A stretch of 63,678 nt of DNA, filler included, from Kipferlia bialata (lineage: Eukaryota): assembly GCA_003568945.1 (NCBI GenBank). It is 3 parts of 3 records of this genome, joined end to end, with 100 filler letters (N's around TTAATTAATTAA, not from the genome) between each part and the next. Parts side by side here need not be neighbours in the genome. Positions count along the whole stretch, not along the records: positions 1 to 24,520 come from BDIP01000224.1; 2 more parts are not named here. One strand, written 5' to 3'. How positions within the stretch are numbered: the first letter of the stretch is position 1; the number at the start of each line of letters is the position of its first letter. This document shows, piece after piece, positions 57 to 63,678 of this stretch. The notes under the pieces were generated by a model. The model was not told where the DNA came from and made no database searches. It saw only the letters and a program-made list of their open reading frames with translations. Both the position numbers and the translations under genes were made by a program.

Positions 57-475
57 GGCATCATGCAGCCAGGGCAGGGCACAGGCCATGCACAGGTATA
101 GAGTGTATGTATATATTCATTGTGTATATATATAGTATGTATATATACATTGTATATATATATAGTATATGTGATTATGAATATGTATATGACCCCAGGC
201 TCAGGCAGAACCGAGAGGAGTCTCAGTCCTATGTATCCGTTCATATCTAATTTCCTTTTATATACTAACTCATAGGCTGAGGCAGAACCGAGAGGAGTGG
301 CAGTATTAGTGTTAGTAACTCTATATACACTAACCCCTCAGACTGAGGCAGAACCGAGAGGAGTTGAGGCTGACTGTGGCTGCAACTATACATATATATT
401 TATATATATATATATGTCTCTCTCTCTATATATATATGTATGTATTATATATATATATAATAGTATTGACCCCAG

Positions 476-1733
476 GCTGAGGCAGAACCGAGAGGAGTTG
501 AGGCTGACTGTGGCTGCACTGAAGCTGAGGGACAACCACGTCAAGGACCTGGGACACCATCTAGGTATACTATTACAGTATATATATATATATGTATATA
601 GATATGTATATATATGTGAGAAGGAGATTGAGGGACAACCACGTCAAGGACCTGGGGCATCACTTAGGTACATTATATACGTGCTTACAGTGTACACACA
701 TAATGTGAGGGAGGTAGATTGATGGACAACCACCTCAAGTACCTTGGGTATTATCTAGTCATTTCACTGTATGGGTATGGGTGTTGTGATAATATGGTAT
801 TTGTGTACCTTGTCCCACCCCAGGTGACATTGAGAGGCAGCTCAGGCAGTTCACAGTGCTCTACGACAAGGTATATACAGATGGGAGTATTAGATCTTTT
901 ACTCTTTGCTGTGTTTAGACTCGACATTCCTTCTCTCACTCTCTCACTCTCTCTCTCTCTCTTCTTCACTTACCCGTCAGGTCAAGAGCCAGCGCAACAA
1001 GTTCAACTCGTTGACACAGCAGGCAAAGCAGGTGTGGATACATCCTGTGACGTATTTATGGACATATACATATATATCAATGTTATCATTATGTATATGT
1101 CATATACATTAGACACAGCAGGCAAAGCAGGTATGAATACAAGTTCTATCATTGTATATATTTATTTGTATGTATGCTATGTTGATATGCGTCATATATA
1201 TTAGACACAGCAGGCCAAGCAGGTGGGAATACAACTCATATCGTTAGTTGTTTTTGATATATAGATATATGCTGAATTGAATCTCACCCTAGGCCATCCT
1301 AGAGACAGCTGAGAAGCTTGGCATCCTTGAGAACGAGGTGGCCTTACTGTCAGACGAGGCACTCAAGAAGGGGCACACCCTTAGCTCATTGACACAGGAG
1401 CGAGAGGTGTGTATGTACTGTTACAGTATTATGAATGCGTGTATTTTATCGTATGTGTATAATGAATACAATGTCTCTATATGTATCTCACCCCCCAAGA
1501 CATTGTGACTGAGCAATCAAGTTCTATGAATTACATACCATATACTATATATATACTATCGGTAGTATCTCACCCCAGGGCACTGTGACTGAGCAACCAA
1601 GTACTATGAATACACCACAATATTACATACTATTAAATACTATTGCGTGTAATACTGTTATAGTATCTCACCCCAGGGCATTGTGACTGAGTGCGATGCT
1701 CTGAGGCAGGATGTCGGGAAGAACACCCGGTAC

Positions 1734-1772
<39 letters not shown>

Positions 1773-4700
1773 CATAGACATACATGCAGTACACACGGTA
1801 CGTATGTATTATATTATATATTATATATTATATATATACTAATATATATATAAGTAATGAGAGATATGTATGTACAGCTGAGACAGGATGTCGGGAAGAA
1901 CACACGGTACGTATATATATATAAGTAATGAGAGATATGTATGTACAGCTGAGGCAGGATGTCGGGAAGAACACTCGGTACGGATACCCATAGACATACA
2001 TACAGCATGTATATATATACATTGATATATATGTATATACATCGATATATATGTATGTGCAGGATGTTGGGAAGAACACCCGGTACGTGTACCCATAGAC
2101 ATACATGCAGCATGTATATATATACATCGATAGATATATATACATCGATAGATATGTATGTGCAGGATGTCGGGAAGAACACTCGGTATGGACGCTAATA
2201 TACCTGTATCCCGCACTCTCAGTGTGCTGGAATAGAATGTCTCTCAGTACTTTTACATACATGTGAGAGTGAGTTACGGTTCTCTCTTGTAATCCTCACC
2301 CCCAGTGTGCTTGGTGAGAGTCACGAGCAGCTCAGGGCATGCATATCAGAGCTCGACAGACTCACAGGTATGTGGATATAGTATGTATATATTATAATGG
2401 TATATTATAGCATATATATGAATATATGGGAGGTGGATCTCAGGGCATGCATATCAGAGCTCGACAGGCTGACAGGTGTGTGGATATATATATAGAGGCT
2501 ATGCTCTGTCAGTCCTAGTTGCCCTTTCGTATCTCTCTCTCTCTCTCCCTCTACACCCTTATCCCAGGTGTCATTTCCTCCCTTGAGGAGGAGATCTCGT
2601 CGCTGAGGTCCCAGTACACAGGCAGCATCGAGGAGAGAAACTTCACAGGTGGGTAGAATTCCAGAATGCTGGCTTGAATAGTACATACTGTCGTATAGTT
2701 ACTGACATTAGGTCAGTGATTTGTAAATGAGTATATATATATTATTGTATATTTATATATAAATAAGTTTATTTATATTATTGTATATTTATTGGTTACT
2801 GACCCCAGGAGTGCAGTTGATCGATAGAAATGACGAGCTGGCAGTCTTGTATGAGCGTTTCAACGTTAGAGAGAAGGTGCTAAGAGAGAGTGACAGGCTA
2901 CTGGCGGACAGAGACCAGGTACGTCTACATGGTATTGGTATGGATTTATATACTGTATGTGTGTGATAGTTATAAGTCGCTATACTTGGTTGAACCTCAG
3001 GGAGCTCTCTCCCTCTCTCTCCCGTCCTCCCTCTATCCCCCCCCCCCTCTCTCACTCCTAGGACCTCCGTGTCCTGTCCATCCAGACCAAGGACCTGGAG
3101 AGGGCCATTGATGTGACTAGGTATATATAGAGTGTGTGTCAGATCACTAATGGATATATAGATGTGTATACTACTGTATATATAGATAGATGGAGAGTGC
3201 AGACCAGGGACCTGGAGAGGGCCATCGATGTTACTAGGTACAGCGGATATGTAATGAGAATGGTAGAGCAATCATTATAGGGGTCAATTTGTCAGTGTTC
3301 TTAACCCGTAGGAGGCCAGCCTCAAGGCAGACATAATTGTACTCTTCCATTTATAGTGTATACACTCTAATAGAGTGTATATATATACTAACAACCCAGG
3401 GAACAGGCTGCCGAGGCCTCCCATATATGAATATGTATACGTGTACCCTTTCGCTTATAAAGTGTATATACCATTAGTATGTATTCCTTACCCCTCAGGA
3501 GACAGGCTGCCGAGGCCTCGACCCTCAAGGCAGAGCACCAGGGACTGCTGGACGAGCTGGTGCAGGCCAAGGTATATATATATATAATATTACCCCTCTT
3601 TGAATAGAATATTCGGTAGTAGTCTCTGCATATTTCGTCAGTCTCTTGCATGCGAAGGTATAGGTTGAATACCCAAGAATACATACATACAACCCCCTCA
3701 TCCCCAGGAGGAGACCGAGAGGCTTGCCCACCGTGCCAGAGACACGGGCACAGAGAACAGGATGCTGCAGCTACCAGGTATGGGTATATATGCTATGTAG
3801 TTATGTCAGCATATCTATGCAGTATCTCTGTGTCCTATGACTCACCCCCCAGGCGAGCAGCCCGATCTGACCAAACTGGTGGAGAAGGCACAGGTATTTA
3901 ACATAAATATATGCATATTCAGTAGTAGTGGTATATATGTGTGTATGGGTATATAATCACTCACCCCCAGGACCTAGAGCAGAGGATCACAGACAAGAAG
4001 GAGGCATTCCTCGAGAGACAGGTATCTAACTGTGTATATATAGTTANNNNNNNNNNNNNNNNNNNNNNNNNNNNNNNNNNNNNNNNNNNNNNNNNNNNNN
4101 NNNNNNNNNNNNNNNNNNNNNNNNNNNNNNNNNNNNNNNNNNNNNNNATACACATGTATGGGTATCACGGACAAGAAGGAGGCATTCCTCGAGAGACAGG
4201 TACGATATGGGTATATATAGAGATGTATAGTTATATATATGGGAATATTGATAGATACTATATTATATATGTATTCGTATGTGTGTGTATCACGGACAAG
4301 AAGGAGGCATTCCTGGAGAGACAGGTATGTATATATGATCATATATACAGATGTATAGTTATATATATGGGAATATTGATAGATACTATTTTATATATGT
4401 ATATACACGTGTATGGGTATCACGGACAAGAAGGAGGCATTCCTAGAGAGACAGGTACTATTATATATACATATATACTTATACTAGCATATATATAGAT
4501 ATATATATATATGTATATGAGTGTATTATATATGTATATATACATATACCTGAATCACGGACAAGAAGGAGGCAATCCTGGAGAGACGGGTACGATACTA
4601 TATGGGTGTGTTTTACACATGAATATAGAATCATAGATACATATGTTTGTATCATATAGAAAGACAGGTAATGTTATTGTATCTTGTTGTTATGTATATG

Positions 4701-6280
4701 ATATATATATGTCCTCCATATATATTCCTGTCGCTGACCCCTCAGGTTGTGCTATTAATGAATCTTTAGATATATGTATCTACTCTGTCATATAACCACC
4801 CAGGTTGTGCTTGACGAGCTGGAGGCAGTGCTAGTAGTATATGATATATATGTATGATAAATATATAATGTTTATCAAATACCTGTTTTCTCTTTCCATT
4901 TCACCTCAGGTTGTGCTATTATTATTGAATCTTTAGTTATATGTGTCTACTTTATCATTTGACCTTCAGGTTGTGCTTGATGAGCTTGGCAAGCTGGAGG
5001 CTGATATAATATTGGATTTCTTATACCTATCCGTGCTCTATATATGGTATATATAGTATATGTAGATATATAGTATATCCTCTAACCACCCAGGTTGTGC
5101 TGGATGAGCTGGAGGCAGTGCTAGTAGTATATGATATATATGTATGATATATATATAATATATATCAAATACCTGTTTGCTCTATCCATTTAACCTTCAG
5201 GTTGTGCTGGATGAGCTCGGCAAGCTGGAGGCAGAGATCAGGAGCACCATCAAGGAGAGGAGACAGGATATGGAGCCAGTCAGGTACGGGACATATATAT
5301 ATGTATAGTATGTATACACATAAATGCAAAATGTATGTATGATGTACCATCAAGGAGAAGACAGGATATGGAGCCAGTGAGGTATGGTTCATAGTATATA
5401 TATGTTATGTGTATACATAGAGGTAAAATGTATGTATGATGTACCATCAAGGAGAGGAGACAGGATATGGAGCCAGTGAGGTATAATACACCCTCTCTCT
5501 TAATACAGTTCTCTCTCACTGCTACACTGCATTTCTATCTCTCCCCCTACACCCTTAATGTCAGGATGGCTGTTTCCAGACTCCAGGCCGCCCTGCACAA
5601 GAAGACCAAGCAGCTGCAGGTATTCTAAACACGCAAATAATATATATATATGCCCTATTTCCAATAGTAAGATGAATTGTCCTTTAGAAGACCAACTAAC
5701 ATATACAATACGAATATGCACTATTTACACATATACATTGAGTATTGTATACTATTTGTCGGACTGACTTCAGGCCCGTGTCTCTGAGACCTCCATGTTC
5801 CATGAGATGTATATATCATACATATATATATATATATATATATAGATGTGTGCCATATGTATACAATCTTTTACCACCAGGCCCTTGTCTCTGAGACCTC
5901 CATGTTCCAGATGATGACACTGGCACTGCACAGAGAGGGGGTATGTTCATATAGATAGACATTTGTATATATGAGTATATAGAGTTGTATATATATATAT
6001 ATTAATATGGATAGTTCCAGATGATGACACTGGCACTGCACAGAGAGGGGGTACGTGCATACACATACACACAGTTATATATCTATACTTACCTAGGACA
6101 CCCTGCGTGTCGTCCTCTATACTATCTATCTCTCTCTCTCCCTCTCTCTATATATATACCTATGTATACCCTTACCCCTAGGACACCCTGCGTGCCGAGG
6201 TGACTGAGCAGAGGGAGAGGTTTGAGGATGGCCTACCACCCACAGACGAGGCAGAGCAGGAGTGGCTCAGGATGGAGCAG
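476..6280 (+). CDS. CCDC146: CCDC146/MBO2-like ciliary coiled-coil protein, partial multi-exon gene
   Basis: Manually spliced GT-AG exons 476-564, 824-870, 981-1031, 1293-1406, 1677-1729, 2306-2367, 2568-2648, 2809-2918, 3062-3120, 3499-3571, 3708-3777, 3853-3893, 3971-4021, 5201-5283, 5565-5619, 5881-5940, 6182-6280 keep frame. Motifs LYDKVKSQRNKF, RNFTGVQLIDRNDELAVLYER, RMLQLPGEQP, ALVSETSM and GLPPTDEAEQEWLR resemble CCDC146/MBO2 from recall; paralog CFAP58 lacks the GLPP..E.EW tail. 5' end is outside the window; 3' end is cut at the polyC/G junction. Confidence 0.8.
4165..5120 (+). repeat. Intronic array of exon-edge echoes (5 donor-side, 5 acceptor-side)
   Basis: Copies of the end of exon 3971-4021 with GT at 4200, 4325, 4455, 4590, 4667. 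Copies of AG plus the start of exon 5201 at 4745, 4803, 4909, 4969, 5093. Confidence 0.9.
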
Positions 6281-6566
6281 GTACATACATATAGAGTGTA
6301 TATAGTAGACATGTGGATAGTATACATAGGTGTATAGTATAAATAGTATATAGAGTGTTTATATGTGGCTCAGGATGGAGCAGGTATATATAGAGAGAGT
6401 ACATACATATATAGTATATATAGAGTCTATCCGTACATAGTATATAGTATTCATGTGTATGTACATATTTATATATATCCTCTAACCCCAGACCCGCCTC
6501 GATGCCATCAGACAGCAGGCATCTATTGTTTGTATAAATACATGTTTACATTTATACATATACCAT

Positions 6567-6634
6567 CCCCCCCCCCCCCCCCCCCCCCCCCACCCCCCCC
6601 CCCCCCCCCCGGGGGGGGGGGGGGGGGGGGGGGG
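6567..6634. other. polyC-polyG junction, probable chimeric mis-join
   Basis: About 44 nt of near-pure C followed by 24 G. The + strand gene on the left and the - strand gene on the right both end here without a terminal exon. Confidence 0.65.
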
Positions 6635-6774: not shown

Positions 6775-7200
6775 CTCTGGCAGCCCCTCGTAGTGGAGGG
6801 CACTCTCCAGACACTCAATGTCCCTGGGGGGTGAGGGGATGGAGGGAAGGAATGTAGCACGGTTGATGGTGAACAGAATGTGGAGTGACAACTAGAGTCC
6901 CTCACAAATGTAGAGAGCTCTCTATGAGTGAGGCACACCACCTTGTTGCTCTGACATCTCCGTATGTCCTGAAGTGCTTTCTGTCGAAGTCGAAGGTGTG
7001 CAGGGAGATGTCCTGTCTGGCGTCAGGGGGGGAACTCTTACATATATGTATTGCCACGGTAAGTGACACAAGTACAATATTAACTAATACCCCCACCTGC
7101 CCATTGCTGCCAGCTCGTGTCCCACCCTGCCCACGATGAATGACTTGTTGGACAGACCCTCACAGACTGAGGGGTCAGAGAGAGAGAGAGAGAGACAGAC

Positions 7201-7231
<31 letters not shown>

Positions 7232-10200
7232 CTGGGAGAGTGTCGATATGAACTATCCACACCTAGGACCTTGCTGCCGATGGGTGTGCCGACCAGGACC
7301 TTGGAGAAGTAGGACTGCACAACCTGGGGGTGGGGTATCAGGAATGAGGCCAGAGCTACTATAACATAGTACATCAAATTCATACATATATGGTAGCCGC
7401 ATATTATACCTGGTTTCTGGCCATCTCACTGAAGAAGAAGATGAGACCCAGGAAGGCCAGGATGCCTCTGGGGTGGGGGAGAAGGCAACATTGATAGGGA
7501 CATACTTAATAGATGAAAGAGAGAGAGAGATATCTGAGGGAGAGTGCGATTGAGAGAGTGTACTCACCCACAGACCAGGACCGATGACCAGAAGGTCTCC
7601 TCGGCATCTGCCATCTCAACTGGCCTGGGGGTAGAACTAGATTGGTGTCGGCAAGAGACAATACACACAGAATAGGGAGAGAGAGAGAGAGAGGGGGGGG
7701 GGGGGGGGGGAAAATGATAAAAAAATTTATCAGTATCAGTACCAATAATATTATATATAGTAATGGGGTAGATACATCCTATCCAGACATACTTATACCT
7801 AGGTAGTGCCTGGTATGCCCTCTCGTTGGCCTCTCTCTGGGTGGGTGCCCTGCCTAGGTCAGAGCACAGGCCGTGCAGAGACATCGAGGAACGGACCTGG
7901 GGGTGAGGGGGTATTCACTTACATACAGTACTATCCCAATATACACTATATAGTAGCATGAGTTGTCGTACCCACTTCTGACCGGACAGCTTCTGCTGGT
8001 CTGGCCCGTATGCATCCACAATGACACCCCTGCTAGGCCATGCCACAGAGTAGAAGGCAGCATCGACCAGGTCCTGGGTCAGCCCACCCTGGTCCCGTCT
8101 GCCTCTGCCCTGGGTGTCGGGTGCCCTTGCTCTGAACATGTACGCAGCCAAGGGGCCATAGATGGGGCCCTCGAGGTGGTTGTTGCTGGGGTCAGTAATG
8201 TATTGCCCCACCATAAGAGATAATATGTACTATATATATATATATAATACACTTAAAAGAATGGTAACCCCACCTCGTGGCTCTCTGCAGCTGGGAGTAC
8301 TGCTGTTCCAGCCGACTACCCTTGTCGGGGTGGTTGCGCAGGAACAGGGGGATGTTGAACCCACTCCTTTCTACACGGTGGCGCTCCTAGGGGTTGGGGA
8401 ACTACACGGATGTGGATTACGATAGAAATAGCTACCACACATAAAACAGAGTGTAAAGTATAATATGAATACTCATACTCACCTGGCTGTACTGCTTGTT
8501 GGCATTGGCCAGCTGGTTCTTCAAGTGGGATATCTCTGCCCTGTCTGGGCCAGGCCCTAGTGCCTTCCTCTGTTCACCTGCCTCAGCAAGGTCACGCTTG
8601 GCCCTCGACAGCTGGGGGTGAGATAGGGAGTATACACATGTATACATGTATACATATATACATGTAAGTGGGGAGAGAGAGAGAGCGAGAGAGTACGGAG
8701 CCCCTGCTAACCTTGTCCTCGAGAGTGATGATGTCTCTCTTGGCTGCCTTCTGCTCCTGCACCCTCTTCTCCCTCCTCCTCCTCCGTGCCTCTCTGGCCT
8801 CCTCGGCATCTGCCTCCATCCTCTCAATCATCCGCCTATCCTTGACTATGGTCATGGCCCCATCCCTGATGGTCCTGACCGTGTCTGCGACATCTCCCAT
8901 GGTCGAGTCAACCATCGTCTCAGACTGCACGTGGCGGTCTGGGGTCATGAAGACAAGGCTGCTGGACTCATGGGGATATATGTACGGAGACATTAGTATA
9001 TGTATACATCCACCAACTGTACCTCTCATCTCCCTGAGCTCCCCCTGGATAGTCTGGTACTCATGCTTGGCATCGGCCAGAAGGTCATGGGCCTGGGGTG
9101 AGGAGAGAATAGTATATCAGTATCGGTATATATATCGTATATATAGGTACATCGGCCAGAAGCTCATGAGCCTGGGGTGAGGGTTGTATTCAAAAGGAAG
9201 AAGGAGCATCACAACCTAGAGATAGAAAGACTAGACTGTAAGTATCCCACCTCCTGTCTGCTTGCCCTGACTGCCTCAGCCTTGGCCTCTGTATAAATAT
9301 CTATCAATATCTATATACCTATCTATATCTTACATATATCTATATACATATCTACCCCACCTCCTATCTGCTTGCCCTGACTGCATCTGTCATAACAATA
9401 TCAGTACCAGTATCTCATATGTGTCCTATAAGAGATAAGATACTAGACTGTACCTCCTGTCTGTTTGCCCTGACTGCCTCAGCCTTGGCCTCTGCATCTG
9501 CCTCACTCTTAGACGCACTGATCACATTTAGCCACGAGGTGGCCTGGGGGTGAGGGGGTGAGGGGGGAAAGGGGGGGGGGGGATGGGAGAGAGGTACCAT
9601 AACTACCATCACACTCCATACCCTTGAGAGTCTCTGCATCTTCTCGATGTTGTTGTCTCTGGAGGCCAGTCTCTCCTTGATGGCCTGCATCCTAGGGGGT
9701 TAGGCAGGGTACTATATTGTGATGTAGCTTGAATACAGTGTATATAGTGTGTGTGTCTACATATATCCCACTCACATGACCAGCTTCTTGTGCTGTGCCT
9801 CTGCCTCTGCCTTGTGGCTGCAGACCTCTGCCCTCATCTGGTTCACCCTCTCTTGCTCCTTCTGCATGTCTTTGAGTCTGGCCTTCAGCTGGGGGTCTGC
9901 AGAGTCCAGCAGGTGGCTCAGACGGTCGGGGTCCTGGGGGGTTAGATGACGCTGTACAATGTAATGGATATACACTAATTCATGCCTTCATCGTGGCCAG
10001 CTGCTGTGCCCCGTCCTGTTCCATGATGGCAAAGGGGTTGGTGATCTGGATGCGGAGCTGCTCCCTACACGTGAGAATAGGTGGGGGGGGGGGTACGTAT
10101 CATAAACAGCAATTAGTGAATGGGGTCACACCTAAACTGTCTGAAAAGTGGCTCCTGCTTGATGGGAATCCATCGGCAGCCTCTGTATGTACCGGTTGCG

Positions 10201-11289
10201 GGGTCGTACTCCTGTGGGTGAGGAAGGGCAGCATAATACATAACACATGCGCAAACTAATACACACCTGAGTCCATGACCCATCGTGCCCTATCAGCTGG
10301 TCCTCCACCCCAGACGTTTGCCTCATCTTGCCCCTGCTACTCAGCACATGGTACTGGGTCTTGAGAGAGGCAGCGCTGGGGGTGAGGCGGGTACTGGGGA
10401 ATTCGGAAACATTAGTATACAATACCCAATGATATATTGATCAGGGAGAGAGTGTGGCGAGGCCACAGAGCAGACAGGGTAGTGCATAATAGAGTCATTG
10501 ACAGTGTGTGATTAATGACAGAATGTGAGAGTCATGCTGAAACCCAGTATACTGATAAGTACATACGTACGTTTGTGGCCCCTTGGTAGTCTTCCTAGTG
10601 ATGACCCTTCTGAAGGTGGAGACAATGGGACCCACGACCCCCTCCGGCTGCCTCTTCACAACCACGTCCACCTCAATCCAGGCTGGGGGGTGAGTGAAGG
10701 GATAGAGTCAATGGGCACCACTATATACCCACCACCCCTACCTTCCTTCTTGATCCCCCTGATGATGGAGGCCATGCCCTTCTTCTCCCGCCTGTCCCCA
10801 AAGGCCACCAGGATGGACGTCATCAGCGTGGACTTGCCTGTCCCGTTGGGGCCTGGGGTAAGGCAAGAGAGAGAGAGTGGTATGTGGTGTTTCCATATAC
10901 AGGTGAAGAGAGCACCTTACACAACCCCATGCATCAGAGAGTGTGCAATAATAACATAGATGCTACATACCTGTGAAGTAGTTCACATATGGGTGGCAGT
11001 TGATCTCCAGGTCAGCCAGGCCCATGACGTTGTGCACCTGGGTATCAGTAAGGGATAGACATCAGACGGCATTCAGTGCTCTAATACGCACCCATGCAGC
11101 CACCATACATCAGTCCCCACCCCTCCATGTCTACCTGCGCCCCCCTACCTTGATCCTCATGATGTGGCCTGGGTGGTACACATGGCCGTACCGCTGCCTC
11201 AGGTAGTCCGCGTCATTGGTCAGGGGGTCGGGGAACACACCGCCCTCCTGCCCCTGCTCCTCTCTGGTAAACCTGTCGGTGTCAGACAT
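6775..11289 (-). CDS. SMC5/SMC6-like ATPase, N-terminal head, coiled coil and hinge (3' half missing)
   Basis: Spliced: MSDTDRF...PGHIMRIK|VHNVMGLADLEINCHPYVNYFT|GPNGTGKSTLMTSILVAFG (Walker A). Q-loop region LRIQITNPFAIMEQD, long coiled-coil exons, and hinge-like GPIYGPLAAYM. Walker B and signature motif are not present before the junction at about 6610. Confidence 0.75.
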
Positions 11290-11534
11290 GCCCCTATGGC
11301 CAGCACTGGCGTCCCCCTGCTCGCACCAGATGCAGATAAAGACAGACTCTTCTATTGAGTGCTGATGTGGGTGTTTTTGCGATAAATATCTACACCCTCA
11401 TCATGTTACCAAATAGCCAACTTCATAGGCGTGCTGCACAGGCCTGGACAGTCTAGGGTTACCACTACTGTCGTGAATTGGTTTGTTAGCCTGTGTTCAC
11501 TGAGCTGGGAGTTTTTCGGCTCTCTCAGTGAACA
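11290..11534. promoter_or_regulatory. Short divergent intergenic region, putative bidirectional promoter
   Basis: About 245 nt between head-to-head ATGs at 11289 (-) and 11535 (+). Positional inference only. Confidence 0.35.
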
Positions 11535-20634: not shown

Positions 20635-21040
20635 GCCGTCTGAACCCTTTCAACGTATGGGAGTCCAGCTGTCTTGTCGTATACTTGATGCCAGTTATCC
20701 GTCTGTCTTTTCTGTATTTCTTTGTTAGCCCCATAAATATGTTTCGTCAGACTTGGTTCTAGGCTAGTATGGGTACGATTAGGTATTGGAGACGTCAGTT
20801 ACTTCATATATACTATTCACCTACTCTTGAAACTTCCAACCACATACTAATACACTACAGTTTATCCTCTGATATGCCCCTCTAATTGGGGGTACCCACC
20901 AACCTAAACATCAGTTGGGGGGTCTCAAACACGAGTCTCTCTCTCTCTCTCTGACTCTCTCCTTCCTATACAATCACACTCCCACACATCGTGAATATCG
21001 AAACCTCTCTCTCTCTCTGTGTGTCTACACAACCAATCTC

Positions 21041-21258
21041 CTAGACCTGATCCTCTGCGTCTAGCAGTATGTCCATGTTGAAGTGGACTCCCAGGTCACG
21101 CTTGGATCCCTAGAGATAAGGGGGAGGGGGGGGAGAGAGAGAGAGAGAGAGAGAGAGAGATACACAAATTTTACACGCACTCTCTCAATATACAGATACA
21201 CATCACATGTACTTGAGGTGATGAATACCATGCCTCCTGGTCACCATCTTGATCTTGA

Positions 21259-21290
<32 letters not shown>

Positions 21291-23858
21291 AATATATATA
21301 CTCATAGTACCTGAGGTGATGAGTACCCTGCCTCCTGGTCACTGTCCTAATCACTCTCTCTCTCTCTATATATATTTATATATATTAATATACATACTCA
21401 TAGTACCTGAGGTGATGAGTACCCTGCCTCCTGGTCACTGTCCCCATCGCTATCTCTCTCTCTGCATATATATATATTAATACACATACTCATATTACCT
21501 GAGGGCTAGAGTACCCTGCCTCCTGGTCACTGTCCCCATCACACACACTCTCTCTCTCTATATATATACACACACACACATATATATGTATATACATGTA
21601 TATACCTGTGGCGATGAGTACGCTGCCTCCTGGTCACTGTCCCCATCACTCTCATGCTCATCATCAGTGTCGGGGGGACCACCTAGATGTTAGGGTATAC
21701 ACAAATGTATCTACGCACACATGCAGACTTACATATTCCACTCAAGTGTTATGGTTGAAGAAACATATATATAAGGAAACAATAACAGGTCTATGTCACA
21801 CTGGTTACATACTAAATGTACTCCTAACCTGCCACCACCGTGAGTGCCTGCAGCACCCTGTCTCTCTCTGCCCTGTCGGCAAAGGCTAGGAGGTACCTGG
21901 GATAAGACAAACCCGAATTGAATAAAAAGTAAAGTACATATGTATCAATACAAATCTAACCCCAAAGACCCAAACACATACTATCTCTGTACATAACTCC
22001 AAATAACGCAAATCATACCTCTTAGCGTTGAACACCCTGAGTGTTCCAAACTCTATGCCATAGGGCTGGGACCCATCGATGTCGGTGGCCTGGGGGTGAG
22101 GGGCAGAATACTATGATTGTGATTGACAGCTGTATGTTTACTATCATGCATCGATATACAATATTGAGTATAAGTATATATATTAGACAGAGAGATAGAG
22201 AATTTATATATCCGAACCTTTGGGTCATCGATCTCTGATACCAGGACCATGTAGAGCTCTGAGGCACTGCCGCCCTGGGGGTTAGTGGTAATACACGAAT
22301 AGTATATATATACAAATAGACAATATATCTACAAATATAGTACTATAACAGTATAACTGTAGAGCTCAGAGGCACTGCCGCCCTGAGGGGTCAGTGGCAA
22401 CACGAAAGCCATAAGATAGTGTGTATCAGGATCACTGACTCAGATACCACAAGTAAGTCCATATATACATATGTGTGCACTGCACCATACCTTGTATGCC
22501 GTCTCACTCTTGAACCACCTGAGACAGTCAGACGACAGCACAAAGAACCTGGGGGTGAGGGGAGGGGGGGAGAGAGATATATGATGAGAGACAGAGAGAG
22601 AGAGAGAGAGAGGGAGAGAGTGAGGACATATATCCACACACCTGCTCTGGAAGTGCTTCACCATCTTCCCCCCCATCTTGCCCGCACTGAAGGAGGTGAT
22701 GACAGACACGCCGTCGGTGCTCTGTCTACAGGGTGAGGGGGAAACATACATACACACTACCATGTAATATATATACGTATACTCATAATGAAAGAGGAGA
22801 GACATATTCTAATAGTAAGGTGGATACATATGCATGTTAGGCCCCCCAATGTCACCCACCTCAGCTCATTCTTGGGCACTGCCTTGGGGATGAAGGCAGG
22901 GACCTGGGGGTAGGGTATAATGGATGGATACACTTATATATATACATATATATATGAGAGGGTTGGGGATGAAGGCAGGGACCTGGGGTGGGAAATGGAA
23001 GATGTAGAGAGTAATATATATTGTAAGAGAGAAACCTAGGATACACATACACCACCCCATACCTCTGTGCGCGATGGGGAAGGTGTGAGGTTGGTTGAGT
23101 GGGGGAAACGGACGGAGGACTCTTGTACAACGCCCTGGGGGTGAGATATGGAATCATAATGTATATATGAATATACATATAGTCTACAGCTAGTATCAGT
23201 GCCTTAGCCAGTGACTCGTCCATCCTGGCCAGCACCGAGGACAGGGACACGTATATACACTTCACATAATGGTATATATATACATACTTTTGCTAGGCTC
23301 TCGTCCAGCCTGGCCAGCACAGTTATTGAGGACAGGGACAAGTATATATACAAGAGGACACAATGTATAATACACTTATATACCTTAGCCAGTGACTCGT
23401 CTAGTCTGGCCAGCACTGTGACAGACGACAGGGACATATACATAGAGTATACTATAGTATCAATATCTATATATTCTATACCTTAGCGAGACTCTCGTCT
23501 AGTCTGGCCAGCACTGTGACAGATGATAGGGACAGGTGCTTCTTGAAGGCAGGGCCTGGGTAAGGAGAAAGAGTGGGAGAGGGAGAGGGAGAGACAGAAC
23601 GCTGTGTCACATTGTGTACATACCCTGTGTATGTCCATCTCATACTGGTTAGACCACTCATATATACACACATATACACACACACACATATATATGTGTG
23701 TGTATGTCCATTCACACACTGTATCCTGCCATACCCTGTATGTGAATATCCATCTCATACTGGTTGGTCACCAGCTGACACTTGACACTGGGCTTCAGCT
23801 GGGAGGGACGCTTGACTACAATGGGGACCCTGGGGGTGAGAGTCTCTCTCTCTCAACA

Positions 23859-23892
<34 letters not shown>

Positions 23893-24030
23893 TACATATA
23901 CATAACGTACCTCACCACCGATCTGGACCCTGCCCTGACCTTGACATCCACACTACCCCTGCCCACACACCGCTTGAAGGTCCTGGGGGTGAGAAGAGGA
24001 GAATAATACTCATCTAGAAACTATGTACAT

Positions 24031-24063
<33 letters not shown>

Positions 24064-24510
24064 GGAGTAGATCCGCACTGCCCCTGCCCACACACCACTT
24101 GAAGGTCCTGGGGGGTGAGGTATGATGTTGCAAAGAGATAGGTAGTAACATATTCATAAATATGTAGAGTAGTCCACACCTACTCATCTTGTCTGCATGC
24201 ACTGTGGTTGATTATTCTCTCTCTCTCTCCATACACACATATATATACACCCTATACATTCATACATATCCCACCCACCTACTCATCTTGTCTGCATGCA
24301 CTGTGGCTGATCTCTCTCTCTCTCTCTCTATCTCTCCATATATAAATACATCCTACCCACCTACTCATCTTGTCTGCATGCACTGTGGTTGATCTCTACT
24401 CCCCCTCTCTCTCTCTCTCTCCATAAACACACACACACATATATATACCCTATATACTCATACACATCCCACCCACCTGCTCATCTTGTCTGCATGCACT
24501 GTGGTTGATC
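21041..24510 (-). CDS. PH-domain protein, 3' part
   Basis: AGKMGGKMVKHFQSR|FFVLSSDCLRWFKSETAYK and RYLLAFAD fit the PH beta1-beta3 and beta7 pattern. Last exon GSKRDLGVHFNMDILLDAEDQV*. 5' end is cut by the scaffold end. Confidence 0.65.
23203..23436 (-). repeat. Three intronic recoded echoes of the end of exon 23482-23555
   Basis: 23384-23436, 23288-23341 and 23203-23250 all translate to variants of LSLSSVTVLARLDESLAK followed by a GT or GC donor. Confidence 0.9.
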
Positions 24511-24520
24511 TCTCTCTCTC

Positions 24521-24620
24521 NNNNNNNNNNNNNNNNNNNNNNNNNNNNNNNNNNNNNNNNNNNNTTAATTAATTAANNNNNNNNNNNNNNNNNNNNNNNN
24601 NNNNNNNNNNNNNNNNNNNN
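24521..24620. other. Artificial scaffold spacer (N-TTAATTAATTAA-N)
   Basis: TTAATTAATTAA at 24566-24577 inside Ns, giving stops in all six frames. Confidence 0.95.
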
Positions 24621-30703: not shown

Positions 30704-31156
30704 ATGGGGGACCAGATCCGCAGGGCCACAGTCGATGACCTCCCTGCCTTGCAGGCCCTGGCCCGGCGTGTGATAGACGGGTGTTACCGGGGCTTCCTAG
30801 GGGACGAGGGGGTGGACTGGTACATTGGGAGTGGGGAGTCTGACAGGGAGGTTGCCAAGCACATCGACAGCACCGACGTCCTGGTGCGTGAGGGGACTGT
30901 TCTGGGACTGGTAGTGTGTCTGGATGACCTAGTCCACTTGCTGATGGTGGATGTGCATGCCCAGAGGTCAGGGGCCGGCACCCTCCTGCTCACCCATGCC
31001 ACCGACAAGATGTTCCAGGCAGGCAAGGGTGTCATACACGTGGAGACGTTCAAAGGCAATGATAGGGCAATTGCGTTCTATACAAAGAACAACTGGACAC
31101 AGGTTCAGAGGACAGGAGGGGAGGAAGAGAGGGTGTTCTTCGAAAAGAGGAGATAG
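30704..31156 (+). CDS. GNAT-family N-acetyltransferase, intronless
   Basis: IRRATVDDLPAL N-terminal motif, acetyl-CoA motif A LMVDVHAQRSGAGTLLL, motif B NDRAIAFYTKNNW; 150 aa from ATG 30704. Confidence 0.9.
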   Translation: MGDQIRRATVDDLPALQALARRVIDGCYRGFLGDEGVDWYIGSGESDREVAKHIDSTDVLVREGTVLGLVVCLDDLVHLLMVDVHAQRSGAGTLLLTHATDKMFQAGKGVIHVETFKGNDRAIAFYTKNNWTQVQRTGGEEERVFFEKRR

Positions 31157-32133
31157 ACGTGCTTCACTCTATATTCCTCATTATTCTGGTAGATAAGACC
31201 CACTACCCAGTAGAAGAGAAGATATGCGGTACTAGTGCTACCCTCTTGGCGTCTGACGGGACTGCGTTGGAGGGAGACTATGTCGGTCAGAGTGAGTGGT
31301 ATAATGCTGGTGTATTGTACTATTTGTAGAGAGAGAGAGAGGTGGGGGGGGCACCCAGTGGTAGATTGTTTTAACTGTTTCTGCAAGGCCTCTCTGTGTG
31401 TCTTTAAGGCCAGAGACCTGGAGAGGTACTCTATATTATTAGGCACAACTCAGGGATAAATTTAGCATATGGTGGTCCATGTTTCTCTCCTTCTCCCCCC
31501 CCCCCCTACTCCTGCCCCCCCCCACATCCGAGGTATAGAGATTCTCTCTACTTATCCTCTACCTATTCTCTCCACTATCTTACTATCCCCTTGACACATA
31601 TATACCTTCGTTCCTTTCCTCTCTGTATGTCATCCTTACAGGCAGTGCTGGCAAGTTGGCAGAGGCACTCGACATATAGCAGGTGTGCAGATGGGTGGGA
31701 GTCTTCCCTCCAAATCTAGCCCAAGTCTCATTTCTCTCTCTTCACTATTGTTGTGCCCTACATATATATATAAGCCCTTGACTCCCAGGACTGACCATGT
31801 GACCAGTCAGTGTCCGGAAGAGAAGGAGGTGAGCGAAGCACCCTCAAGATAGAGGCATTACTGAATAGAGTCTATTCAATAGACCCTTTGTTCTGTGAAG
31901 CGTGTAGGCGTTGGTGTGTCCAAAAATTGCATTCAGTGTGACCCATTCTTTAGTGTTCTTGCATATTAGATGCAAGTTGGGAACGGTGTGTAGATTTTTG
32001 GTCTCATTTAGTGTCAAGCAGACGCAACTGGTCTCTTTCCAGCATTTGTGAGTGTGTGTAAACCAGATGCTGTCATGTGTAATCAAGTCTCCCCTACACG
32101 CTTTTCAAATTTCTATATACTATCTCATAGCAG

Positions 32134-49121: not shown

Positions 49122-49221
49122 NNNNNNNNNNNNNNNNNNNNNNNNNNNNNNNNNNNNNNNNNNNNTTAATTAATTAANNNNNNNNNNNNNNNNNNNNNNN
49201 NNNNNNNNNNNNNNNNNNNNN
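49122..49221. other. Artificial scaffold spacer (N-TTAATTAATTAA-N)
   Basis: TTAATTAATTAA at 49166-49177 inside Ns. Confidence 0.95.
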
Positions 49222-63460: not shown

Positions 63461-63626
63461 CCCTCTGTGGTATGAGGAGGTGGAGCCCATGGCAGAGGCA
63501 GCGGCCTTGCCTGACAGTTAGTCTCTTTCTCTCTCTCTCTCTCTATCTATGTATACATATATACACACACACACACATATATATATATACCCCACCTGAT
63601 ATGGCTGTGTTCCACATCCTACTCTG

Positions 63627-63678
<52 letters not shown>

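Follow-up and report, generated by a model that had tools for sequence, protein, structure and literature searches.

Exon-edge copies in the introns of Kipferlia bialata and their possible origin in diverged working alleles

In a 63,678-nt stretch of DNA from the free-living flagellate Kipferlia bialata (hereafter, the window), many introns contain partial copies of the adjacent exon edges along with the respective splice sites, which we refer to as echoes; the gene of interest (gene A), predicted to encode a member of the CFAP58/CCDC146 family, lies on the first contig of the window. A preliminary description of gene A, made from the sequence, held that most of its introns carry such echoes and that the echoes differ from the exons mostly by synonymous substitutions. 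These claims raise the question whether the echoes are genuine genomic copies, whether they are used, and from which source sequences that leave with the intron could have been copied. As we show below, the echoes are real genomic copies, and we see a somewhat better than even chance that diverged working alleles were their source, with copying through unequal repair or exchange between homologues and later decay. All counts were taken within the window, not genome-wide.

Gene A and its exon-edge echoes

The model of gene A comprises 17 GT-AG exons (476-6280, + strand) that yield a single stop-free frame of 399 aa; the gene extends past both ends of the modelled region.

476-564, 824-870, 981-1031, 1293-1406, 1677-1729, 2306-2367, + strand: gene A exons 1-6 (GT-AG, open frame)
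2568-2648, 2809-2918, 3062-3120, 3499-3571, 3708-3777, 3853-3893, + strand: gene A exons 7-12 (GT-AG, open frame)
3971-4021, 5201-5283, 5565-5619, 5881-5940, 6182-6280, + strand: gene A exons 13-17 (GT-AG, open frame)

The 399-aa translation is a 100% match to residues 4-402 of the public K. bialata protein P0001. Pfam assigns the protein to CFAP58_CC, a family that we take to include CCDC146/MBO2 as well; 5 of the 5 PDB matches at E<=0.001 carry the name CFAP58, the matching Atlas clusters are named CFAP58-domain, and no CCDC146-named chain is found among the 9 PDB matches at E<=10. The CCDC146 label given to the gene previously is plausible from its motifs, and the assignment supported by these matches is that to the family.

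Echoes were identified by nucleotide-only local alignment of each exon edge with its own introns, at a score threshold that was reached by 38 of the 212 cognate pairs vs 0.29% of the non-cognate exon-edge/intron pairs. The window-wide counts are based on 13 hand-built gene models, among which that of gene A alone was checked against an RNA-type contig and the public protein, the others being judged by open frame and GT-AG boundaries. Automatic gene prediction, which fused genes and called echoes micro-exons, was discarded, and a 14th model (gene N), with no open frame, was dropped before counting. The search yielded 67 matches at 42 of the 202 exon edges in the 13 genes, 30 of them in gene A; exclusion of the 5 unanchored matches leaves a strict set of 62 edge-anchored echoes in 39 arrays, and 31 of the 99 introns carry echoes. 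In gene A, 29 edge-anchored echoes are spread over 12 of the 18 introns (10 of the 16 between modelled exons and both flanking introns), in agreement with the description of most introns as echo-bearing.

63-95, + strand: probable donor-side echo of an upstream exon outside the window (from the sequence; without an acceptor in front; excluded from the counts)
199-221, 276-298, 342-384, + strand: three echoes of the acceptor side of exon 476, every one with an AG of its own (alignment; depth)
629-667, 720-758, + strand: two donor-side echoes of exon end 564 (alignment; in one DNA contig, 622-924, 0 differences)
1112-1130, 1204-1222, + strand: two donor-side echoes of exon end 1031 (alignment; within DNA contig 972-1725)
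1499-1513, 1579-1593, + strand: two acceptor-side echoes of exon 1677 (alignment; within DNA contig 972-1725)
1878-1906, 1949-1977, 2059-2082, 2162-2185, + strand: four donor-side echoes of exon end 1729 (alignment)
2439-2475, + strand: donor-side echo of exon end 2367 (AGA>AGG, CTC>CTG; 2 silent)
3200-3237, + strand: donor-side echo of exon end 3120 (ATT>ATC, GTG>GTT, 2 silent; K>R)
3400-3420, + strand: acceptor-side echo of exon 3499 (alignment; R>E)
4164-4199, 4289-4324, 4419-4454, 4554-4589, + strand: four donor-side echoes of exon end 4021 (alignment)
4804-4820, 4970-5007, 5094-5110, + strand: three scored acceptor-side echoes of exon 5201 (alignment)
5346-5381 (2-nt deletion), 5443-5480, + strand: two donor-side echoes of exon end 5283 (alignment)
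5774-5802, + strand: acceptor-side echo of exon 5881 (alignment; L>R)
6014-6050, + strand: donor-side echo of exon end 5940 (identical across 37 nt)
6097-6112, + strand: acceptor-side echo of exon 6182 (alignment; A>V)
6365-6383, + strand: donor-side echo of exon end 6280 (alignment)

Every codon difference named in the preliminary description was found in the sequence, and the replacement changes that it reported at 720-758, 1579, 3400 and 5774 are present as claimed. The 629-667 echo differs from the exon (526-564) by four silent changes (GGA>GGG, CAC>CAT, CAT>CAC and CTA>TTA) and no replacement, and the 720-758 echo by 3 silent and 5 replacement changes, with the GT gone. The echoes in 1878-2185 contain AGG>AGA, ACC>ACA/ACT and GTC>GTT (5 silent, 0 replacement). 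All four echoes in 4164-4589 begin at exon base 3986, with an N gap (4047-4146) just upstream, and show ACA>ACG and CTC>CTG/CTA, the last one adding F>I and Q>R, which had not been described earlier. The echoes of exon 5201 show CTG>CTT, GAT>GAC, CTC>CTT and GCA>GCT, plus E>D, and two of them have a 9-nt deletion; two shorter echoes of this exon, near 4746 and 4910, are below the score threshold. Segments 4804-4828 and 5094-5118 have in common an in-frame deletion of 9 nt that is flanked by short AGCT repeats, and both lie in a larger duplicated block of 290 nt.

The tandem unit, ~100 nt long, comprises an exon edge of 12-56 nt, the splice site (GT/AG present in 54 of the 62) and a portion of intron; the exon-derived part of the echoes is 0.92 identical to the exon and covers at most 76% of it. 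The repeat units are spaced by a median of 99 nt, and in 12 of the 14 multi-echo arrays, the far end is common within 3 nt, suggesting a single seed followed by unequal exchange. Echoes are present in 23 of the 28 introns of at least 200 nt compared to 8 of the 71 shorter ones, with an intron lengthening of ~118 nt per echo, and the introns that carry echoes have the lower GC content (0.38 vs 0.44). The distribution is clustered by gene, with 0 echoes scored in five of the modelled genes.

Echoes in DNA contigs and in the transcript

The comparison with independent contigs covered positions 60-1790. Contigs assembled separately from the public DNA run X1, which possibly represents the window's own sample, align to 622-924 and 972-1725 with 0 differences at a depth of ~393 and span six echoes at exon depth; spanning of the echo junctions had been singled out for checking in the preliminary description, and for these six, it is seen in the contigs. 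The 42 nt that are identical in exon 476 and the third of its echoes (342-384) have a contig depth of 792 vs ~393. The missing cover at 60-460 coincides with skipped repeats and carries no evidential weight. The proposal that echo variants occur as allelic single-nucleotide polymorphisms at the true exon received no support in this region, where the DNA and RNA-type contigs, which drop variants, contain no other letters.

A 2840-nt contig from another run, X2, which is classed as RNA by guess and whose contig lies on exons alone, covers exons 1-5 of gene A, and the three GT..AG joints listed for it excise echo-bearing introns whole; the pseudo-sites in these three introns are therefore unused in the main transcript, the only splice form that such a contig displays, minor forms being invisible. 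The joint at the exon 476 acceptor is not among the three. The acceptor-side echoes in 199-384 precede the used acceptor and have strong branch and AG signals, and the echo at 342 outscores the true acceptor.

The RNA-type contig continues upstream for at least 255 nt, and its loose end matches 63-95 with a single silent difference, AGT vs AGC (by eye). Residues 1-3 of P0001 (MHR) derive from the probable echo at 63-95, which, together with the upstream extension, indicates that the public model is likely 5'-truncated.

None of the 37 donor-side echoes has an acceptor-like site in front, and a donor-like GT behind the acceptor-side echoes (18 of 25) is as frequent as in the background (0.67). 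Changes that create stops are found in at least 3 echoes and gaps in 4, and the splice dinucleotide is lost in 8 of the 62. Tandemly duplicated mutually exclusive exons are also exon-like copies within introns that show a low ratio of nonsynonymous to synonymous substitution rates, and they have both splice sites and are spliced in; unlike these, the echoes hold one splice site, represent only a part of the exon and show signs of decay, without the combination of both sites and an intact frame. The echoes apparently are dead and not working now.

Silent differences, splice signals and mosaic arrays

Among the 38 distinct differences between the echoes and exons of gene A, 23 are silent, compared to 10.0 expected if all were neutral, and the codon-level tabulation showed an uneven distribution over codon positions 1, 2 and 3 (7, 8 and 23, respectively; chi-square P=0.002), as the preliminary description had implied. 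Protection of the exon, but not of the copy, suffices for about half of the bias above neutral, with no special source required. The fair null pairs a neutral copy with an exon in which silent change only is tolerated, and predicts a replacement/silent ratio of ~0.5. Under this null, 15.2 silent differences are expected in gene A (P=0.006); for a second gene (gene G), the numbers are 21 of 32 vs 12.0 (P=0.0006), and for the whole window, 71 of 137 vs 53.4 (P=0.0009), with a ratio of nonsynonymous to synonymous differences (pN/pS) of 0.29 (0.20-0.44 in a bootstrap over the 39 arrays). Local-copy simulations passed through the same detection gave mean ratios of 0.44-0.53, with 0 of 750 runs at <=0.287; when a silent distance of 0.1 was added, the ratio was 0.245. 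The GC>AT direction is similar in silent (34:21) and replacement (31:15) changes.

The splice-site proximal part of the echoes was analyzed using one echo per array, with a 10-nt bin set after data inspection. Within 10 nt of the splice site, 20 of the 66 4-fold degenerate sites and 11 of the 236 0-fold sites differ (ratio of 0.15, 0.07-0.28), and without genes A and G, the ratio is 0.17 (0.07-0.32). The GT is intact in 34 of the 37 donor-side echoes; in these echoes, 4 of the 74 GT positions differ (0.05) compared to 61 of the 111 positions +4..+6 (0.55), the latter being near the level of unrelated true donors (0.50-0.68), and with one echo per array, this pattern exceeds the local-copy ceiling (P=0.0002). 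In general, echo splice sites score far higher than random decay of the cognate site would yield. Identity between the 36-nt intron flank beside an echo and the true flank is 0.67, against a value of 0.60 obtained with unrelated introns, with 20 of the 58 flanks above the 95th percentile of unrelated-intron identity; 9 echoes that are exon-identical over 225 nt nonetheless have flank identities of 0.44-0.75. The near-edge ratio, the conserved GT and the diverged flanks suggest that the edge, the splice site and the start of the intron apparently diverged while working. A neutral local duplicate would be expected to show a ratio of ~0.5 everywhere and a GT worn at half the rate of its neighbours or more, whereas the values observed are 0.29 over whole echoes and 0.15 near the edge, and 0.05 vs 0.55 for the GT.

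The arrays themselves bear on the number of versions involved; two arrays of gene G are given here.

21038-23982, - strand: gene G (hand model from open frame and GT-AG only)
23203-23537, - strand: gene G exon end 23482 and its three donor-side echoes (alignment; mosaic)
21213-21653, - strand: gene G exon end 21606 and its four donor-side echoes (alignment)

In the array of exon end 23482, one echo differs over 56 nt by 12 silent changes and a single V>I, Ser AGT>TCA is present in two echoes, and 8 of the 10 informative site pairs are incompatible with one tree, implying at least two co-existing versions that recombined. Two gene A arrays also contain incompatible pairs (2 of 3 and 3 of 6), and such pairs occur in 3 of the 6 arrays that hold three or more echoes, with none in the other three. 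Protein-preserving multi-base changes include, in addition to the serine switch, Arg CGT>AGG. The argument, made previously, that several silent states at one codon imply more than two sources does not follow by itself because successive changes on a single working lineage would give the same result; the need for at least two versions comes from the mosaic.

Possible origins of the echoes

Copying from diverged working alleles could proceed as follows. After a break in or near an exon, one end would invade the homologue, where the exon alone is still alike, and synthesis would cross the homologue's splice site into the homologue's intron. The extended end would then be joined to the other break end rather than re-annealed, resulting in a working boundary and a version stranded in the intron, and the stranded copy could mispair with working edges of other alleles, yielding array growth, a common far end and mosaics. 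Units with two splice sites would insert coding sequence and would be removed by selection, and the spliceosome would take the outermost donor and acceptor, the array leaving with the intron. The subsequent decay of the echoes is probably neutral, and cis gene conversion may act after capture. According to PMC8516963, Rad51A is missing from fornicates and Ku-type end joining from metamonads, and the proteins recorded for K. bialata include Dmc1, Spo11 and PolQ; this repair kit fits an extension-then-joining route, a model of which, with joining by Pol-theta, is presented for tandem duplications in PMC7368036. K. bialata is reported as diploid in the text of PMC5874029. We are more hesitant about a broader proposition, which we consider possible but on balance doubtful, namely, that in Kipferlia, repair between homologues rewrites the introns, with entire splice boundaries exchanged among deeply diverged alleles and the previous ones left stranded, that a single genome thereby archives thousands of boundary alleles, and that this is the main intron-lengthening force.

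Several results weigh against an allelic source. The presumed donors remain unseen because no second haplotype is detectable in the DNA contigs at 60-1790 (which, being contigs, drop variants), and protein and metagenome searches found no other strain or close relative, the metagenome scan with P0001 returning 80 loci at just 29-36% identity, none close. Over whole echoes, the silent excess comes from genes A and G, gene A having been chosen for its bias; in the other genes pooled, 27 of the 67 differences are silent vs 26.3 expected (ratio of 0.49), as local copying predicts, so that the silent bias claimed originally holds above the fair null in these two genes and not in the rest. Beyond 10 nt from the splice site, 16 of the 134 4-fold and 31 of the 548 0-fold sites differ, and the resulting ratio of 0.47, like that of the other genes, is that of a neutral local duplicate. 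The silent distance required (~0.1, higher at the edge) is large for alleles. The echoes of an array were simulated as independent, which makes the simulation P too small (the tail too thin), and forward population simulation (2 runs per setting) gave ratios of 0.23-0.86, too noisy to separate the models. Finally, the echoes nearest to the exon are slightly cleaner than the farthest ones (13 replacements across 446 nt, compared to 19 across 390 nt), a weak age trend.

One alternative is plain local tandem duplication, on a sister template or by slippage, with a neutral copy beside a constrained exon, introns rapidly scrambled by microsatellite slippage, and genes A and G as upper-tail cases. 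Such duplication explains much of the bias (expected silent share of 0.39) and fits all genes except A and G when whole echoes are counted, as well as every site more than 10 nt from the splice site, but we consider it unlikely given that the near-edge ratio of 0.15 is found in all gene groups, that the GT is kept although positions +4..+6 are near saturation, and that the Ser switch, the 12:1 echo and the 750 simulations speak against it. Slightly less likely still are donors that were homeologues or paralogues from past hybridization or duplication, since lost or converted, and captured by the same mechanism: they would account for the deep divergence (0.36 at near-edge 4-fold sites, with intron flanks near random) and for the single haplotype visible today, but no second copy of gene A is found among 14 protein-search candidates (a weak search with a single 40-aa query), and the silent distances, from 0 to 12 of ~17 sites, do not form one age class. 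Local duplication could also be combined with a mutational hot zone at the working splice junction, where the active boundary would change several-fold faster than the idle copy and selection would pass silent or consensus-compatible changes only. This combination, which we regard as improbable, yields the gradient from exon interior to intron without a second haplotype, but the 23203-23537 array would require repeated Ser AGY/TCA switches or recombination, and we know of no mutation process of that size at splice junctions. Homogenization of old local duplicates by cis (or cDNA) gene conversion over the exon-derived part only would place identical exon parts next to diverged flanks and generate mosaic arrays; we give it little credence because the near-edge replacement/silent ratio of ~0.5 and the GT worn like its neighbours that it predicts both fail.

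The remaining explanations fare worse. A present-day role of the echoes, with selection at the protein level acting on them as alternative exons or splice sites, could be read from splice signals far above random decay and from the donor-like GT behind acceptor-side echoes, but that GT is at the background rate, acceptors are missing from donor-side echoes, stops, gaps and lost GT/AG have accumulated, and the RNA-type contig (main form only) skips the echoes, making function very improbable. We would rate equally low a mobile intron-like piece that, on insertion at an exon edge, generates a long target-site duplication: identical exon copies, unrelated flanks and an intact GT would result, but the silent excess is left unexplained, the flanks resemble the cognate intron beyond chance, and among the 88 cross-intron blastn matches between the 99 introns, the 12 inspected are 22-47 nt long, none a long common element (introner-type elements would form a repeat family across loci). 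The least probable explanation is an assembly artefact, in which the assembler would have placed alleles one after another; echo arrays do coincide with N gaps and contig ends, but separate DNA contigs span six echoes without differences at exon depth and the identical 42-mer is at double depth (the run possibly being the window's own sample).

Several other features of the window were observed along the way. N linkers with an all-frame stop motif (24521-24620 and 49122-49221) mark contig joins, with no continuity across. Echo arrays abut contig ends or N gaps at 24177-24520 (- strand; the true exon lies off the contig), 63560-63678 and 4047-4146, and arrays running into such ends may cause much assembly fragmentation. 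Downstream of the gene A model, 6492-6518 is either an exon with a GC donor or an echo, and a poly-C/poly-G run at 6565-6634, between the 3' parts of gene A and of an opposite-strand gene, is probably a join artefact. The gene at 7000-11290 (- strand), with few echoes and a Walker A motif recognized by eye, is, we assume, SMC-like. Possible GC-AG introns at ~9988 and 43104 (- strand) are required for an open frame, and an intron-less acetyltransferase-like open reading frame (30724-31157, by eye) in this intron-rich genome could be a lateral acquisition.

Exon-boundary repeats with silent pseudo-donors are already known: in human F7 intron 7, a 37-bp variable number tandem repeat extends across the exon 7-intron 7 boundary, the units hold the exon end and donor, and, in the portion of PMC1557585 on this repeat, the first donor is used and the downstream ones are silent. 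The Kipferlia units likewise consist of an exon edge and splice site head to tail (62 of 67 edge-anchored, 54 with GT/AG), but they are not homogeneous (exon part 0.92 identical, flank 0.67 vs a background of 0.60); F7 is described there as one locus with identical pseudo-sites, whereas the echoes occupy 31 of 99 introns, on the donor and acceptor sides, with diverged intron parts and protein-preserving differences. Variation in copy number between individuals is a further mark of repeats of the F7 type; the data here represent one sample. In the C. elegans brc-1 tandem duplications, as outlined in PMC7368036, a template-extended break end is also joined to the other end to give a head-to-tail copy, but with a sister template, mostly over 10-20 kb and in a mutant, compared to ~100 nt, a wild genome and a putative diverged homologue. 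Intron gain in ATP2A1 by segmental tandem duplication, in the account of PMC3265369, similarly leaves a short duplication of gene sequence lying within an intron; there, an exon-internal duplication creates a new intron, whereas in Kipferlia, boundaries are copied and existing introns lengthen. New Daphnia introns with internal direct repeats, attributed to staggered breaks, resemble the present case in that repair lengthens and diversifies introns, with intron alleles differing within the species, but the repeats covered in that part of PMC4202315 are intron-internal, with no exon-edge copies showing silent bias. What is new here is the density of the echoes (present in 31 of the 99 introns and in 23 of the 28 long ones) and the signs of their origin in diverged working versions. 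We found no description in the literature of exon-edge copies in Kipferlia or of a silent bias therein (the supplements of the genome paper being outside the search), and the main text of the genome paper, supplements not covered, has 0 occurrences of 'duplicat'.

Whatever their source, the echoes account for most long introns in the window and offer numerous natural experiments on how a spliceosome that works with short introns bypasses good nearby donors and acceptors. They also mislead annotation, as in the case of the public protein that begins in a probable echo. If the allelic source is true, the echoes would be a fossil record of allele exchange; and if boundary swapping on the broader scale is true, it would document directly, at the sequence level, that diverged homologues recombine (cryptic sex or parasex) in a group in which no such process has been observed.

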